Of a stretch of DNA of 64,000 bases, positions 9,948 through 16,993 are shown in pieces. The notes beneath the pieces are model-generated. The model was not told where the DNA came from. It did no database searches and was given only the letters and a program-made list of their open reading frames with translations. Position 1 is the first letter of the stretch, and the number at the start of each line of letters is the position of its first letter. This DNA comes from a virus. Its lineage: Duplodnaviria > Caudoviricetes. The DNA lies in the IMG/VR virus record IMGVR_UViG_3300009314_000001; one strand, 5' to 3'. The translations under genes were made by a program, and so were the position numbers.

Positions 9948-10340
9948 TTACAACGATGGTATACATTGAATTACCATAGATGCTCGTATTTCGCCTCTTA
10001 ACATAGGTATCTTAATATTGTTTTTCGTTGATGTCAGATATGACATACATCCTATATATTGACCACCATCATATTCAAATTCAATATTATGTACCATCAT
10101 ATTCTCCCCAGGAAGATATATCTGGGGAGTCTTTCTAGTCTGACCAAGATCCTCTATAGTATTAATATGCCAAATTGCGATTATAACAGCAGTAGGATCT
10201 TCAATTCCTTCTTCAGTCACCCAAATTCGAGCTTCTGGTGTACAATAACTAGATGCTGTTACTGATGGACTATTTTCATCCATAAATTGATGGACCAATT
10301 CTTTGGTCGTAACAGCGATGACCCGATAGAACATTCGCAT
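9948..10340 (-). CDS. hypothetical protein
   Basis: 130-aa ORF coupled to the upstream gene. Confidence 0.6.
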   Translation of the reverse strand: MRMFYRVIAVTTKELVHQFMDENSPSVTASSYCTPEARIWVTEEGIEDPTAVIIAIWHINTIEDLGQTRKTPQIYLPGENMMVHNIEFEYDGGQYIGCMSYLTSTKNNIKIPMLRGEIRASMVIQCIPSL

Positions 10341-10708
10341 TATTCTTCAGGATTACGCCAGCATTCGCGTAACCACTCAACTTGATCGATATCGGGTAAT
10401 TGTGTATCAGGACCATTCATGCTCATCAAGATAAAGCATGTTAGAATCATCTCGGCTTCCGTTTTAGGCATCTGCTTTGGATATCGCTGCATAGCCTTAT
10501 AGAAAGCAAGTGATATGTGAGACCAAATCCTAATTTCATTATCAGGATTGAGATCTCTCATGAAGCCGAGTTCGAACTCTTCTAGTGTAGGTGCATTCAG
10601 GTGCCCACAGATTTTATAGATGGTCTTAAGTTTTTCTGATTGTTCGTCAGTGAGTTCACCACGAACGGGACCCGGTTGAATATCGCTGAATTTGACTTTT
10701 CTAAGCAT
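10340..10708 (-). CDS. hypothetical protein
   Basis: 122-aa ORF with a GGAGG RBS. Confidence 0.75.
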   Translation of the reverse strand: MLRKVKFSDIQPGPVRGELTDEQSEKLKTIYKICGHLNAPTLEEFELGFMRDLNPDNEIRIWSHISLAFYKAMQRYPKQMPKTEAEMILTCFILMSMNGPDTQLPDIDQVEWLRECWRNPEE

Positions 10709-10756
10709 TTTATACCTCCATAGTCCAAATACATTGCCTAACTGGAGGTATTATAC

Positions 10757-11773
10757 TTACAAGATAACTCGCCGAAGCTTACACACCATTTCGATAAGCC
10801 GTATAATACTTTCCGCAAGTCGTAAATGCTCCTCGCCCCAGTATTCGGCGAGCTCCAGATAATTGTCGGCAAGGCCTTGCATGGTCACTTGCAGATTATC
10901 GTGGTAAGTTTTATCATCAAACTTATCACGCCTCGTAAACATACAAAGCCCATGTCTTCTAGCTGCGTTTCTGAAGTCTAATTTATATCGTCTACGGTCG
11001 CCGCCTTCACCAGTCTCTAATTCCTCACCATGACCTTGAACAATTGCTGTAGCAATTTGCTCTGCCCAATCCTGGACCGGTGTCCCTTTCCTAATACCAA
11101 ATTCCCTAATATCCTTGTGGACTGGATCTCGTAGGATGTAGACACCAGTCGCCCCACCACTAAGATAAGTAGCAATAACTATATAACCATCATACTCAAA
11201 CACGTAATATCTTGATTGATATGGGAATATCTCAGCCATATTCGCACCACGACCAAAATAATCCACAACTCGATGGTGGATTATATTATCATCCTCTATA
11301 GCATCTCTATACAATCCTAACCAAAGCTCACGCCATTGACTTCGATCAAGAGGTACATCTCCTTCATCACCACCTTGTTGGTCAATTTCGTCTAAGATCT
11401 CTTCATCAGGCGGCGGAGGCGGCAAAGGTGGCGGTTGTGGTACACCAGTACTAAGATGCGATGGAGCAGTAACCACTGAATCAAGCTGCTCTGGTTTATC
11501 GATTGTGGCTTTGTTAAACCACTCATCCTCGCCACGCATAACAAGATTATTATCTATAATCTCTAGGACCTTTGGATCGTTAGGCTTAAGATTGTATTGT
11601 GTGGCTACCTTGTTAACTATAGCATCTTGTGCCTGATACAGTGCTTTCTTGCCCTGATCACCGCTCGGTATACCATACATATTAACTATATTAAGGATCT
11701 GCTTCAATATTTCGGGATCTATTTCTATGAATTCACGTATAGTGAAGTTATGATGTATCCAATTTAATCTCAT
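10757..11773 (-). CDS. hypothetical protein with a polyproline/acidic linker
   Basis: Start moved to ATG 11773 (MRLNWIHH) after GGAGG; PQPPPLPPPPPDEE linker. Confidence 0.75.
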   Translation of the reverse strand: MRLNWIHHNFTIREFIEIDPEILKQILNIVNMYGIPSGDQGKKALYQAQDAIVNKVATQYNLKPNDPKVLEIIDNNLVMRGEDEWFNKATIDKPEQLDSVVTAPSHLSTGVPQPPPLPPPPPDEEILDEIDQQGGDEGDVPLDRSQWRELWLGLYRDAIEDDNIIHHRVVDYFGRGANMAEIFPYQSRYYVFEYDGYIVIATYLSGGATGVYILRDPVHKDIREFGIRKGTPVQDWAEQIATAIVQGHGEELETGEGGDRRRYKLDFRNAARRHGLCMFTRRDKFDDKTYHDNLQVTMQGLADNYLELAEYWGEEHLRLAESIIRLIEMVCKLRRVIL

Positions 11774-11838
11774 GACCAATCCTCCGCTGTATTTTTGTTC
11801 TGGAGGTGGAGTATTATCCCTGACACCAAAAATATTAT

Positions 11839-12066
11839 ATGAAAATCTGTATGATAGAATCAGCATCAGCTCCACAATTAATCAAAACACTGTGGAGTCC
11901 CGCTGTCGCTTACATTAGATATCCAAATGGAGAAATCTGGGAATATATTGTATACGACGACGCTGAACTACGATGGCTAATCAAGAAGTACGGTAGAAAT
12001 AAGGGACGACTAGCAAACAAACTAAAGAAGTATGAATCAAGACTAACTAACCCAGTCCCATTCTAA
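11839..12066 (+). CDS. small hypothetical protein
   Basis: 75-aa ORF converging on the radical SAM gene. Confidence 0.55.
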   Translation: MKICMIESASAPQLIKTLWSPAVAYIRYPNGEIWEYIVYDDAELRWLIKKYGRNKGRLANKLKKYESRLTNPVPF

Positions 12067-12857
12067 TAAGTAACATACCTCCACAGCTTTTTTCTTCGGC
12101 ATCGTCGGCATAACGGTAATTTGGTTCTCTTACGTATCAACTCTGGTACAGTAATATCATCAAATACTGTGTACCCAGCATCCACTTTATAACTAGCACA
12201 GCATAAATAATACCGTCCATCATGACCAATCGGTATCCAATTTATAATATTACAAGAACGATAGTTTGGATGACCTGGAGGATTTTCGGTCTTAACATAT
12301 AAATCGTGTTCATAACCCGCCAATAACTCTTCAACCCCAACATTTAATTTTAGTAAAACAAATTCAAGACCATGTTCACTACAAAAATCGCGAGCTATTT
12401 CTTGTTCATGAACATTATACTTATGATGCAGCCAACGAACACATATTTTTGTTCTTTGTTGTGCTAAGAATCTATGTATATTAGCCATTACTAATTCAAA
12501 ATCGCCACCCCTATGATATATCCTATAAACATCAGGCGTCATTCCAGATAATGAAATATATATTATTCTAAAATTATTAAGAGAGTCTAGTTTTTCATCT
12601 GATAGAGGTAATGAAAAATTGGTACTCACGCAAGAATCAGTATCTTTAATCATATTAGAAACAGTTATAAACTCATCATGAAGTAAAGGCTCTCCGCCAT
12701 TATACCAATGTAAACAATATTGCTCCCCAAATCTTTCTATAACTTTTTCTACTATTTCTAAAGACATTTGTTCGTTAGATGGCGTATGAGTACTATTCCA
12801 ACAGAGAACACATCGTAAATTACAACCATCAACCAATTCAGGATTGATATATATCAT
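12063..12857 (-). CDS. radical SAM protein with a C-terminal SPASM/twitch-like Cys cluster
   Basis: CNLRCVLC, GGEPLLH, and C-terminal C...LCC...CRRC. Confidence 0.9.
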   Translation of the reverse strand: MIYINPELVDGCNLRCVLCWNSTHTPSNEQMSLEIVEKVIERFGEQYCLHWYNGGEPLLHDEFITVSNMIKDTDSCVSTNFSLPLSDEKLDSLNNFRIIYISLSGMTPDVYRIYHRGGDFELVMANIHRFLAQQRTKICVRWLHHKYNVHEQEIARDFCSEHGLEFVLLKLNVGVEELLAGYEHDLYVKTENPPGHPNYRSCNIINWIPIGHDGRYYLCCASYKVDAGYTVFDDITVPELIRKRTKLPLCRRCRRKKLWRYVTY

Positions 12858-13516
12858 ATCATCGCCATCCTTCGATCATTAATTCTAACATAAACATTTA
12901 TTAACCTCTCCAAAACAAACGGGATGGCAGGAAATTTTTCAAAGCCTGTTTGTTCCGTAAACGTTTCCGGCGTAGGATAGTCTACAAGCTCTCTCAGGAC
13001 TTCATATAATTCTTCATCAGTCACGATTAAATCTATAGCTGGTCTGAGTAAAGTAGTAACAAAATCGATATATACCTCTCTCCGTGCTATAAAATAATTA
13101 CTATAAATACATAGCTCTTCTTTATCGAAGGATGGTATATATGGAATAACACTCTGTTCTAGAAGTTTTTGAAGAATAATTTCAAAACCAGTTTTAACAC
13201 CTCTATAAGTATAGGAATGTTTATGTGGTCTTCCAAATTTGCCTTTTCGTTTTGGAGCTAATATATCATACTTTCCACGTTTTCGAACTCCATTTTGCAG
13301 TCTCTCGAAGTTAAAACCTCGAATTTTTCTATCAACTTTCCAAGAGAACACACCAAACCAATCACAATCTGAGCACTCTCCTTGGCCTACCAAATCACAT
13401 ATAATTCCACTCTCTAGATAAATATCCGCAATCTCATTGAAGTACGGAATAAAGCCCTCCAATAGAAACTTCCTCTGGAATCTTCTATAGTAGATCTGAT
13501 ATACTTTAATTCTCAT
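12854..13516 (-). CDS. putative glycosyltransferase-associated protein
   Basis: KVYQIYY, WFGVFSWK, SNYFIARRE and PFVLERL resemble motifs of glycan-modification proteins (by eye only). Confidence 0.45.
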   Translation of the reverse strand: MRIKVYQIYYRRFQRKFLLEGFIPYFNEIADIYLESGIICDLVGQGECSDCDWFGVFSWKVDRKIRGFNFERLQNGVRKRGKYDILAPKRKGKFGRPHKHSYTYRGVKTGFEIILQKLLEQSVIPYIPSFDKEELCIYSNYFIARREVYIDFVTTLLRPAIDLIVTDEELYEVLRELVDYPTPETFTEQTGFEKFPAIPFVLERLINVYVRINDRRMAMI

Positions 13517-13763
13517 GACAGCATTTGAGATTTAGTTTTTCACCATCTAGATTGAATGTTTCTACATATTCGGCCCACCCTGATATATTAGCTTTAACAC
13601 CAACTATAGATTTTGGTATTCTTCTATGTTCAATATGGGTAGTCTCACCTTCCCTCAACCATATTCTATGATGGCGAACACGCCGTTTAGCCCTCACAAC
13701 CGATATAGCAACAACATCCTTACGTTTCGTCGCAAAATCGCCATGAGGAGTACTAATAATCAT
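13506..13763 (-). CDS. hypothetical protein
   Basis: 85-aa ORF with overlapping start/stop junctions. Confidence 0.55.
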   Translation of the reverse strand: MIISTPHGDFATKRKDVVAISVVRAKRRVRHHRIWLREGETTHIEHRRIPKSIVGVKANISGWAEYVETFNLDGEKLNLKCCHEN

Positions 13764-14143
13764 TCTATCGGTAGGTGTTCACACCAATCCGGCATCAGGT
13801 CTGTTAAGTGCTTCATCATTTCATCAATGATTATATCAACAATTCTAGCGGGACTTGTATTAGGATCAGTAATATCAAAACTTACCCGACAAAAACTTAG
13901 AATATCTCTACCTGGTCTACCATCATATCGTACTATTTTACAATGAAGACCATAATCCTCGAATCTTATACTAGCCCCACAATCTATCCATTCTTTTGCT
14001 CCGTCATCTTCCGCTTCCATAGCAATAACATATTCATCATTGCCATTATCATAAAAAACATGAAAATCTAATCCAAGTACTAATTTACAATGATTAGCAA
14101 TTTCCTCAGCTAATATTTCGATCAGTACCATTATCATTACCAC
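13760..14143 (-). CDS. hypothetical protein with C-terminal FDITDPNT motif
   Basis: 127-aa ORF; motif shared with three other ORFs here. Confidence 0.65.
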   Translation of the reverse strand: MVMIMVLIEILAEEIANHCKLVLGLDFHVFYDNGNDEYVIAMEAEDDGAKEWIDCGASIRFEDYGLHCKIVRYDGRPGRDILSFCRVSFDITDPNTSPARIVDIIIDEMMKHLTDLMPDWCEHLPIE

Positions 14144-14154
14144 TACGAATAAAA

Positions 14155-14244
14155 CTGGCGGGCAGGGAGTTGAACCCTGCCATTCCCGGCTACATGGCTT
14201 GCAAAACCAGCACTCCGAGCGTCCTGTCCCCTAGACCACCGCCA
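14155..14244 (-). tRNA. non-canonical tRNA-like RNA (apical anticodon loop UU-UGC-AA, extended anticodon arm)
   Basis: Minus strand: TGGCGG / TG / GTCT-AGGGGACA-GGAC / G / CTCGG-[25 nt]-CCGGG / AATG / GCAGGG-TTCAACT-CCCTGC / CCGCCA / G. D and T arms are clear; CCA is not encoded after the discriminator. Confidence 0.7.
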
Positions 14245-14276: not shown

Positions 14277-15290
14277 TTACCAAGCCCCCGATCGTATAAA
14301 ACACTCCAACTTCTGCTCAACACACCCCCACCACTTCTCAATCGCACTTGGATCACACAAAGGAACACGAAAAAACGGATTCTTAAGCGCCTCAGCACTC
14401 ATACTAAAAACAAGATCCCCATCATGAACCACAGTACTACACTTCCTAGCAGAATCAACATCCACATGAAACCCAAGTAACGTCACAAGAATCTTCCAAC
14501 CCTGCAGAAAAAACCGCACCTGCACCCTCCGACCAAGCTCAAGAACAAGCAAAGCAACCTCATCCAACTCACAACCATGAACCTCCAACAACTCAGTACA
14601 CCTCACCCCACGCTGACCAACAAGAACCCTAATAAAATCCTCATTAGAACTCTTCCCCTTAGCAAGATTCACCCACTTGCAAAGCAACTGAACATTACCC
14701 CTCGTATAGCCCTCATCAGAATCAATACGGTCAACAGAAATACTACAAAGATCGCCAAACTTATGAGTCATAGGAAGACCACTAAGAGCACAACGGCCGC
14801 CCCGCTCTTCATAAAGCCCCCACAAATCCTCAAAAGTAATAGAGACTCCCAGCAAAGCTCTTTGTCTATTTGGATAAGTAGTTATTTTTCCTTTTCTAGC
14901 TTGATTTGATTGTTTTGTAAGATGATGCATTAGATTCCTGATAAAAGCTTCAGGAGACCTTTGGATAGCTTTCCGAACTGAAGCTATCCGCTGTTTCTTA
15001 TTCTTCTGATAATCATCTTTTTTATATTGTTTCAATCGGTCAGCATGGTCTTTTCTGTATTGTTCATGAACTTTACTTTGGCATTCACGGCAAATATTAC
15101 TGCCCTTCTTGAAAGGCTTTGAATCACGTGGATCACCGCATTCGCGACACTTATTCGGATCATTTCTTGTAGATCTTTCGGCTTCTATATGTCCACAGGA
15201 AGTACATATCCACCTTTCAGGCTTCTTTGGGTGTGTAAAAATAGTATGCCCGCATTCACTACATTTCTCAGGCTTCTTTAATGATGTCAT
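14277..15290 (-). CDS. Zn-ribbon plus His-Me-finger-like (DRI variant) endonuclease
   Basis: Several CxxC pairs; CALSGLPM...SISVDRIDSDEGYTRGNVQLLCKWVNLAK. Start moved to ATG 15290 after AGGAG. Confidence 0.75.
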   Translation of the reverse strand: MTSLKKPEKCSECGHTIFTHPKKPERWICTSCGHIEAERSTRNDPNKCRECGDPRDSKPFKKGSNICRECQSKVHEQYRKDHADRLKQYKKDDYQKNKKQRIASVRKAIQRSPEAFIRNLMHHLTKQSNQARKGKITTYPNRQRALLGVSITFEDLWGLYEERGGRCALSGLPMTHKFGDLCSISVDRIDSDEGYTRGNVQLLCKWVNLAKGKSSNEDFIRVLVGQRGVRCTELLEVHGCELDEVALLVLELGRRVQVRFFLQGWKILVTLLGFHVDVDSARKCSTVVHDGDLVFSMSAEALKNPFFRVPLCDPSAIEKWWGCVEQKLECFIRSGAW

Positions 15291-15322
15291 TTTAGATAGT
15301 CTCCTGTCTTTAGAATACATAC

Positions 15323-15356
15323 AAAAAAAGCCCGGACTGAACAACCAATCCGGGCT
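15323..15356 (-). terminator. rho-independent terminator downstream of the major capsid gene
   Basis: AGCCCGGA / TCCGGGCT stem followed by a T7 tract on the minus strand. Confidence 0.9.
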
Positions 15357-15397
15357 CATTATTTTTGTTCGAAGACAGCAGACTCGATAACGGTCGT

Positions 15398-16993
15398 TTA
15401 CAAATTCGAGACCGTTACGGTGGCATAGTAAAGACCCCCATCCTCGATGAGTTTCTTCCCATATCGAGTCATGATCCCCTTGTTGGGGGTGAACGAGTTG
15501 GGATCGAGGACTGTTGGCGTGCTCAGGAGCGGGATGTATGGGGCGTAGAAGTAGCCCGCATCCAGGACTGAGTTGCCTTTGAAGCCCATGAGAATCTTGC
15601 AGTTGGGGAACAGCGGATCCTTGTAGATCTTCATCTTGCCTTGGATCGTGCCGATGTTCATGATCCCGATGTCGACACCCTCGGTCGTGAACGCGTCGCT
15701 CGCTCGGAAGTCATTCAACTGCTCGAACTTCGAGCAGATATCGGCGGACATCACCATCCAGTTGGCAGGACCTCGCAAGGTGGTCCTATGGATGATGTTG
15801 GCCACTTCAAGGACTTTATACATCAAGGCGATGTTGCGGTCCGTGAAGTTCACCGAAGCACCAGCGGCCGTAGCGAAGTTGTGGTCCGCTCGGATGGCTG
15901 CCGCGATTATCAAGTCGTTGATGATTTCACGATCGATTTCCGCGACCATCTCATCGGCCATCAGGTCGGTGAGGGTGGACTCGGCGTCGATGTTGTGAAC
16001 CGACTTGAGGTCTTGAGCGGCCTCTAGTGACCAGCTCGTCTTCAGCTTACGAGTAATGGCTGCCACCGAATCGCTGTCGATGCTCAGCGTGACTTCGGGC
16101 TGGAAGGGATTCGCCTCGAGGTCGTACTCGTAATTAACCCGTGCCACTGCTCCGGCGGGTAGTGTACCGGCACTCAGCGTGATCTGAACGGCACCGGTCG
16201 TGTGGTCAAACGCGGTAGCACCAGTCGTGGTGTCGTCGACCGTGATCGTGTCGGTGAAGTTCGTGCAGTCACCGTAGATGATGACGTCCGGATTGCCGTC
16301 TGCATCGAAGCTGACGCGTAGGCAGGGTACTGCTTCTTCACAGTCCGGATTGGCTTCTGCGGCCGTCTCGAAGGCCTCGACAACCACCGTTCCTGCCAGG
16401 ACTGGTCGGTGTGCCAGAGTAGCGGCAATAACCGTGCCACCAGAAACCGTTGCGTCTTCACCGCGTACTTCTTGCGAGCTGTAGTACGGGTCCAGAGCCC
16501 AACCGTTCTGCCTTGAGAACGTCTGGGCCGTGTTTTGACGCATGATCTGGGTGCCAGCAACCGTCTGGCCCTTCGTCAGGGCGTAACGGTATCTGATGTA
16601 GAAGATCAGACTGGCCGGTTGGCTCATCGGCTGGACGCCAACGAGGTTGTCCGCAATCAGCTTCGGATACGATTTGCGGATAAGGGGTAACGCGAAACGG
16701 GTGAAGTCCGCGATGTTGGCCGTCGTCGTCTGGTCTTCCAGAATGACGCTTCTGTTCTCGGGATTCCAGGTATTGAACTGGTTCTCGAGAATACTTGCCA
16801 TCAGGCCGAATTTTTTCTGCGGCACTTCACGGCATTTGCTTAGGACCGGACTCCACTTGCCCACGAGTCGGTTTTTCTTACCTTCGTGGATGATCGCTGC
16901 TTTGTGGAGATCTGTTTCTTCGGTGATTGGGCGGCGACCTTGGCCGCGTCCCTCGGTAATGTGTCTGCGACGCTTTTGGCGCGTAGGAAGCAT
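15398..16993 (-). CDS. major capsid protein, T4 gp23-like, with an inserted beta-rich domain
   Basis: LVGVQPMSQPASLIFYIRY, RKLKTSWSLEAAQDLKSVHNIDAE, EIDREII, GYFYAPYIPL; high-GC codon bias. Confidence 0.97.
   Translation of the reverse strand: MLPTRQKRRRHITEGRGQGRRPITEETDLHKAAIIHEGKKNRLVGKWSPVLSKCREVPQKKFGLMASILENQFNTWNPENRSVILEDQTTTANIADFTRFALPLIRKSYPKLIADNLVGVQPMSQPASLIFYIRYRYALTKGQTVAGTQIMRQNTAQTFSRQNGWALDPYYSSQEVRGEDATVSGGTVIAATLAHRPVLAGTVVVEAFETAAEANPDCEEAVPCLRVSFDADGNPDVIIYGDCTNFTDTITVDDTTTGATAFDHTTGAVQITLSAGTLPAGAVARVNYEYDLEANPFQPEVTLSIDSDSVAAITRKLKTSWSLEAAQDLKSVHNIDAESTLTDLMADEMVAEIDREIINDLIIAAAIRADHNFATAAGASVNFTDRNIALMYKVLEVANIIHRTTLRGPANWMVMSADICSKFEQLNDFRASDAFTTEGVDIGIMNIGTIQGKMKIYKDPLFPNCKILMGFKGNSVLDAGYFYAPYIPLLSTPTVLDPNSFTPNKGIMTRYGKKLIEDGGLYYATVTVSNL

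Follow-up and report, generated by a model that had tools for sequence, protein, structure and literature searches.

An intergenic tRNA-like element with an over-long anticodon arm in a marine jumbo T4-like phage, possibly a non-decoding tRNA mimic

Genomic setting

The DNA analysed here, called the window throughout, is a stretch of 64,000 nt from the IMG/VR record IMGVR_UViG_3300009314_000001 and forms a part of a contig of 122 kb, whose completeness is put by CheckV at about 34%. It carries a Gp23-type major capsid gene (15398 to 16993, minus strand) together with a T4 prohead protease; complete genomes among the capsid relatives measure 341-408 kb, and the DNA sequencing runs that hold parts of the locus described below are marine metagenomes. 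No RNA run with the locus was found, and from the three marine DNA runs only short contigs were obtained, none of them covering the element. The source is a marine jumbo T4-like phage. A tRNA-shaped element is hosted by a gap of 133 nt between two same-strand open reading frames, being intergenic and placed on the gene strand:

14277 to 15359, minus strand: upstream neighbour, Zn-ribbon and HNH/endonuclease VII-type nuclease (PHROG 1035, 3322 and 3118 over residues 16-246)
14155 to 14244, minus strand: the whole tRNA-shaped gene, 90 nt (ARAGORN coordinates; MFE cloverleaf; identical in contigs L125 and L126)
13760 to 14143, minus strand: downstream neighbour, a 127-aa ORF without a family, the first gene of a lineage-specific island

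The element has a GC content of 63% against about 42% for the genome. Since it and its flanks are identical in two further metagenome assemblies, made from other JGI samples (L125 and L126), it is real DNA, stable in the population, and no assembly artefact. The 127-aa neighbour protein is present on 11 contigs, the longest of 340 kb, and as a search anchor it returned identical copies only.

Synteny with relatives stops at the endonuclease gene, and the genes from about 10000 to 14200 (minus strand) are lineage-specific, with an 85-aa ORF, a 220-aa ORF and a radical SAM gene following the 127-aa ORF; for these two reasons we place the element where the conserved capsid module gives way to an acquired island. 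For this block the nearest homologs are located on other large marine contigs, within sulfotransferase/glycosyltransferase clusters, and those of the 220-aa protein, at most 47% identical, belong to glycan-synthesis clusters that have no tRNA-like neighbour. Such affinities agree with an acquired glycan-modification island.

On the other side of the gap, the C-terminal part of the endonuclease ORF, about 107 residues (14277 to 14600, minus strand), has no counterpart in some 30 relatives that share the nuclease part; the idea that this terminus is a paralog of the 127-aa ORF received no BLASTP support (E = 5.7) and was rejected. Directly after the capsid gene there is a strong terminator-like hairpin (15328 to 15357, minus strand), 13 pairs followed by a T-run. 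It falls within the endonuclease ORF as predicted, at its 5' end, so that the longer start of this ORF is doubtful; the JGI gene call for the endonuclease is of 337 aa. One relative (L016) carries a normal tRNA-Leu(UAA) at L016:9158-9241(+), approximately 0.8 kb downstream of a homolog of the same endonuclease. That site is comparable to the one described here, and this is the sole tRNA found at the locus among 80 capsid relatives.

Structure of the element

Position p of the RNA corresponds to window coordinate 14245-p, and the D-arm register was set by comparison with an ordinary phage tRNA-Glu. The following parts can be distinguished:

14239 to 14244, minus strand: acceptor 5' strand UGGCGG, RNA 1-6 (register from a normal tRNA-Glu D arm)
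14221 to 14236, minus strand: D arm of Glu/Gln type, RNA 9-24, 4-bp stem and 8-nt loop AGGGGACA
14215 to 14219, minus strand: outer anticodon stem, 5' strand CUCGG, RNA 26-30 (fold; pair probabilities 0.97-1.0)
14190 to 14214, minus strand: the 25 nt inside the outer stem, RNA 31-55 (internal loop AG/G, 3-bp helix, bulged U51, 4-bp helix)
14199 to 14205, minus strand: apical 7-nt loop UUUGCAA, RNA 40-46 (same as the tRNA-Ala(UGC) anticodon loop of relative G031)
14185 to 14189, minus strand: outer anticodon stem, 3' strand CCGGG, RNA 56-60 (fold, pair probabilities)
14162 to 14180, minus strand: T arm, RNA 65-83, loop UUCAACU on a stem of 6 bp, or of 7 bp in the MFE fold (fold, pair probabilities)
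14155 to 14161, minus strand: acceptor 3' strand CCGCCA with discriminator G (sequence, fold)

The long-armed tRNA-like element reported in the earlier note is confirmed, and its boundaries, 14155 and 14244, coincide exactly with a minus-strand ARAGORN call. Both the MFE and the centroid fold are a cloverleaf with a long anticodon arm, with pair probabilities of 0.77-1.0 in all helices and the single exception of G6-C84 (0.36). The D and T loops are normal, as had been claimed (in the MFE fold the D stem has 4 bp and its loop 8 nt, and the T loop reads UUCAACU), and the conserved tertiary nucleotides U8, A14, G18-G19, A21, G53:C61 and the T-loop UUCRA can all be read from the sequence, although U8 is preceded by 6 nt only, U7-G8 of the RNA standing where positions 8-9 should be. 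One or two additional T-stem pairs make up for the lost acceptor pair, and the coaxial stack of acceptor and T stem stays at 12 bp. Of the 6/6 division between these stems proposed earlier only this sum is firm, and the division may also be read as 5/7. The 3' CCA tail is not encoded, and UUUUAUU follows.

Canonical tRNAs have a 7-bp acceptor, a 5-bp T stem and a 5-bp anticodon stem with a 7-nt loop, a plan which the element does not follow. In both folds its CUCGG/CCGGG stem encloses 25 nt rather than 7, which, as was correctly noted before, makes the anticodon arm 18 nt too long for decoding. Inside it, pairs 33-35/52-54 and 36-39/47-50 form a nested stem that presents UUUGCAA at the tip; the claimed stem does fold so in the MFE structure, but its stability is no better than that of shuffled inserts.

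Detection by tRNA models and comparison with chance

ARAGORN reports one tRNA in the whole 122-kb contig, at the coordinates of the element, and labels it Ser(GCT). This single call is a forced fit and the label is wrong: in the Ser drawing nearly every pair of the anticodon stem is G-U and the variable arm contains mismatches, and its class II threading reaches -16.7 kcal/mol, compared with -24.4 kcal/mol for a Sec-like threading and -36.8 kcal/mol for the long-arm fold. The Infernal check against Rfam, likewise put forward in the earlier note, leaves the element below the threshold of the tRNA model RF00005 (gathering threshold 29 bits), nothing being found at the gathering score, when 291 nt were searched at E<=10, or in a search of the whole contig. 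The best model of the clan at E<=10 was tRNA-Sec (RF01852), with 13.5 bits (E = 5.8); as this family has a threshold of 47 bits and requires 8/5 or 9/4 acceptor/T stems, it was rejected.

How far such a structure could arise by chance was estimated with our own cloverleaf scanner, which leaves the enclosed length free and was run on 1.69 Mb of the phage and its relatives. It returned 88 normal tRNAs, a further two whose loops have 8 nt, and a few that bear inserts. On a body score that counts conserved positions and Watson-Crick pairs the element reaches 24, the 88 real tRNAs range from 23 to 28, and no match above 22 appeared in 60 shuffled genomes; the tRNA body is beyond chance. The extra stem is not. 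The fold z of the whole molecule is only -1.4 and the MFE z of the arm is -1.0, with 15% of shuffled 25-nt inserts folding as well and 44% of shuffled inserts giving a single hairpin of at least 12 bp. Since shuffled inserts fold as stably, the pairing of the arm cannot count as evidence of design.

Identity signals

The element carries G3:C70 and no G3:U70, and U1-A72, G2-C71 and G73 had been read correctly from the sequence. Its Gln-like acceptor end, another claim that stands, has UGGC...GCCA and G73 exactly as in the tRNA-Gln of the clade, and the loop at the tip, UUUGCAA, has the very sequence of the anticodon loop in the tRNA-Ala(UGC) of relative G031. Because the acceptor end matches tRNA-Gln and the tip loop tRNA-Ala(UGC), the element is chimeric in its identity signals: a UGC loop is combined with an acceptor end of Gln type and a D arm of Glu/Gln type, and G3:U70 is missing. 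Identity to any single tRNA is at most 78%, and no clear parent emerges; derivation of the acceptor from a phage tRNA-Ala was considered and rejected, as the similar gene (L081) turned out to be a tRNA-Asn. Close relatives possess ordinary tRNA arrays of 5-39 genes, Ala(UGC) and Gln among them. The canonical tRNA-Gln and tRNA-Ala(UGC) of the clade (in G008 and G031) resemble the element in the acceptor end, the loop and the D and T arms, whereas it differs from them by a 6-bp acceptor, a 6-7-bp T stem, 25 enclosed nt in place of 7 and the lack of an Rfam match.

Homologs and insert-bearing genes in relatives

No homolog of the element was found by blastn in 80 loci around related capsid genes (73-89% identical), or by full scans of the complete genomes G004 and G005. 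A single-sequence covariance model of the element, run over 81 loci, the whole of both these genomes and the records of 32 relatives, recovered ordinary tRNAs only. Among viral contigs, exact and gapped DNA scans with the arm-core pattern gave nothing, and the D-arm plus T-loop pattern retrieved only an ordinary tRNA-Glu of an unrelated phage. Pattern scans of metagenome and genome contigs gave no homolog either, their two candidates (L127 and L128) being rejected as chance matches in non-tRNA sequence, and in the phage GenBank collection the 3-kb region around the element has no match. As to other alleles, diverged or insert-free, these searches yielded none, only identical copies. With no homolog found in these searches, neither covariation nor purifying selection lends the element support. 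Within the data searched the element would thus be a one-off, and it may be either a tRNA mimic or a broken tRNA.

The architecture itself does recur. In two complete relatives the tRNA model matches genes that carry structured sequence in place of the anticodon loop:

L082:384-497, minus strand: insert-bearing tRNA-like of G004, tRNA-model match of 114 nt
L082:502-594, minus strand: insert-bearing tRNA-like of G004, tRNA-model match of 93 nt
L083:147-254, plus strand: insert-bearing tRNA-like of G005, tRNA-model match of 108 nt

A further match of this sort lies at L119:16758-16921(+) in G005. All four hold 32-100 nt of structured sequence where the 7-nt anticodon loop should be, each unique in sequence; the matches of 93, 108 and 114 nt have 32-52 nt on the anticodon stem, with a fold z of -2.7 to -4.0. 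These genes share with the element its clade, normal D and T arms and a structured extension of the anticodon stem, but differ from it in having no sequence homology to it, longer inserts (32-52 nt), 7-bp acceptors and detection by RF00005. They are singletons among the loci searched and not homologous to one another, and the 18-nt core of one of them matched its own genome only. On inspection, simple excision of the insert restores a U33/R37 loop in none of these genes, the element included.

Otherwise normal tRNAs with 8-nt anticodon loops occur at L083:71-145(+) in G005 and L082:75-150(-) in G004, reported by ARAGORN with the four-base anticodons 'aaac' and 'taag', and these may be frameshift-type or other non-standard decoders. 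At L109:2639-2714(-) in G005 ARAGORN finds a tRNA with anticodon CUA, labelled Pyl, of the amber-suppressor type, which hints at TAG recoding in some relatives. Genes of the Ro60/TROVE family are present in three of the five complete relatives (G005:C1:294766-295380, G003:C1:182300-182884 and G004:C1:151582-151812), and the one of G005 is about 1 kb from a long-armed tRNA-like (293696-293803) and likewise from two tRNAs. An RtcB RNA ligase, with an open frame of 405 aa, is encoded in only one of the five (G001:C1:115950-117044).

Interpretation

The reading that we favour, tentatively and at rather less than an even chance, is that the element is a tRNA-derived gene for a small RNA without a decoding role, that is, a tRNA mimic. 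Its anatomy is observed; expression, processing and target we infer. The features read by tRNA-maturation enzymes are kept (the 12-bp stack, U8, A14, G18-G19, A21, the T-loop and the discriminator), and the element could be co-transcribed with neighbouring genes, released by RNase P, trimmed at its 3' end and CCA-tailed by the host. The anticodon arm has about 7 bp, an internal loop and a bulge more than a normal one and would hold the Ala(UGC)-type tip too far from the elbow to meet a codon, and because the identity signals conflict the RNA is probably not charged by AlaRS or GlnRS. Such a molecule could bind, titrate or be cut by a protein that recognises the tRNA shape or an anticodon stem-loop, candidates being a host anticodon nuclease, a tRNA-sensing defence, or a phage RNA-repair or Ro-type protein, and it would act without interfering with translation.

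Several observations point to such a mimic. The helices are intact, the universal tertiary positions are present and the body scores as real tRNAs do; the acceptor, one nucleotide short, is offset by a T stem one pair longer; the element is GC-rich, intergenic and on the coding strand, and identical in assemblies from two other samples. Its tip is the Ala(UGC) loop of the clade and its acceptor end that of the clade's tRNA-Gln, and the architecture recurs non-homologously in G004 and G005, where excision likewise never gives U33/R37. It is also relevant that PrrC-type nucleases accept a bare anticodon stem-loop (PMC3014915). Against the mimic speak the lack of homologs and covariation, an arm that folds like shuffled inserts, the failure of the Rfam tRNA model and the hypervariable spot beside a homing-type endonuclease, where debris is expected; the 122-kb contig, about 34% of the genome, yielded no candidate partner protein. 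A more specific version, in which an expressed, RNase P-processed mimic shows the clade's tRNA-Ala(UGC) loop on an over-long stalk and, as decoy or as sensor ligand, engages a host anticodon nuclease or a tRNA-sensing defence, and in which it belongs to a broad undescribed class of long-armed tRNA-likes in jumbo phages, we consider improbable when taken with all its parts.

Nearly as likely as the mimic, though in itself on the unlikely side, is a dead gene: at the edge of the horizontally acquired island, a phage tRNA that was once normal would have received 18 bp in its anticodon loop and lost 1 nt from the acceptor strand, leaving a recent relic whose function is gone and whose sequence is not yet eroded. 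Two lesions relative to a canonical tRNA, together with conflicting identity elements, and the failure of the Rfam tRNA model agree with such decay, as does a nested stem of the kind expected from 44% of random inserts. The element is unique to its lineage, the locus in 80 capsid relatives lacking it and only L016 having a normal tRNA there; its site is between a homing-type endonuclease and the acquired glycan-enzyme island, and the genomes of close relatives have normal tRNAs for Ala(UGC) and Gln at other places. However, a relic would hardly be expected to keep every helix perfectly paired and GC-rich in an AT-richer genome, to have its acceptor deletion exactly compensated by an added T-stem pair, or to end in a perfect 7-nt anticodon-type loop identical to the Ala loop of the clade, and the recurrence of insert-bearing tRNA-likes in relatives argues for a maintained design.

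We regard as improbable a pre-tRNA in which an 18-nt intervening sequence at the 37/38 site (RNA 37-54) is cut out by an unknown activity and the ends are joined to give the anticodon UGC. Removal of 37-54 in silico does turn the element into a 72-nt tRNA-Ala(UGC) for ARAGORN, and the would-be anticodon U33-G34-C35 pairs with the end of the insert. Helices that pair the anticodon with the intron are known from the anticodon introns of eukaryal and archaeal pre-tRNAs. Insert-bearing phage tRNAs provide a precedent (PMC6784885), and one complete relative has the RtcB ligase. The spliced loop AGUGCUG, however, would have G33 and U37 in place of the near-universal U33 and purine 37, no alternative excision yields U33 on inspection, and G3:U70 for alanine identity is missing. 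Nor is there a bulge-helix-bulge, with two 3-nt bulges 4 bp apart, the fold showing a 2x1 internal loop and a 1-nt bulge; the splicing endonuclease (PF01974) occurs in none of five complete relatives while archaeal controls were detected, the scans found no insert-free allele, and the 122-kb contig, about a third of the genome, encodes neither RtcB nor a T4-type RNA ligase.

Less probable still is a cis-acting role as a tRNA-like signal for punctuation or stability, either a site processed by RNase P/RNase E or a transcript-end structure, which separates the endonuclease mRNA from the island genes. Such tRNA-like processing signals are established in other systems, for instance mitochondrial punctuation and mascRNA, and the element does fill a tight same-strand gap, with UUUUAUU and then the next start codon at its 3' end and the downstream ORF beginning 12-24 nt after it. 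On the other hand, no terminator was called at the element, and a simple hairpin would do for this purpose, leaving the full tRNA tertiary set and the anticodon-type tip unexplained. An ordinary class II tRNA-Ser(GCU), in agreement with the ARAGORN call and a length of 90 nt typical of class II, is hardly credible, as it needs the almost all-G-U anticodon stem and mismatched variable arm, folds 20 kcal/mol worse than the long-arm structure and stays far under the thresholds of the Rfam tRNA and tRNA-Sec models.

Phage tRNAs are now known as weapons in the conflict over host defences that cleave tRNAs; if the decoy reading of the mimic is true, the element would be a counter-measure of a different kind, a decoy instead of a replacement tRNA. 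Standard annotation overlooks such genes or gives them a false label, here Ser from ARAGORN and nothing from Rfam, and automatic isotype labels on them should not be trusted.

Comparison with known systems

Two groups of small RNAs invite a comparison. The bacterial Y RNAs (YrlA, RF02553), bound by Ro/TROVE proteins, are similarly non-decoding and combine a tRNA-like module with a long helix. The topology differs, which bears on any partnership of the Ro/Y-RNA type: YrlA has its termini at the long helix and a closed acceptor, whereas the termini of the element are at the acceptor. Neither a match to RF02553 (E<=1) nor a TROVE gene was found in the 122-kb contig (about 34% of the genome). RNAC and RNAD of phage T4, also called species 1 and 2 RNAs, are small and stable, have no known role and are encoded together with that T4-type phage's tRNA genes (PMC3014915, PMC9697503), and their likeness to the element is one of context only.

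Another parallel is found in the Lak megaphages, whose tRNAs carry "enigmatic introns" that came to light when tRNAscan-SE was re-run in eukaryote mode and for which no mechanism was given (Devoto et al. 2019, PMC6784885). Both cases concern tRNA genes of huge phages with extra sequence at the anticodon loop which bacterial tRNA finders miss, in both an isotype can be assigned only once the insert is removed, and neither has a known mechanism; removal of RNA 37-54 makes the element a typable tRNA, called tRNA-Ala(UGC) by ARAGORN. The differences are that Lak inserts are defined by insert-free alleles and conserved across cohorts, while for the element the searches gave identical copies only and neither such an allele nor a homolog, that its excision leaves a non-canonical loop, and that its marine T4-like lineage and its sequence are unrelated to those of Lak. 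Among the insert-bearing tRNA-like genes of phages, a poorly understood group, the element is a new structural variant, and it adds a clean, reproducibly assembled case from a marine T4-like megaphage to the pattern that its relatives and the Lak phages show.
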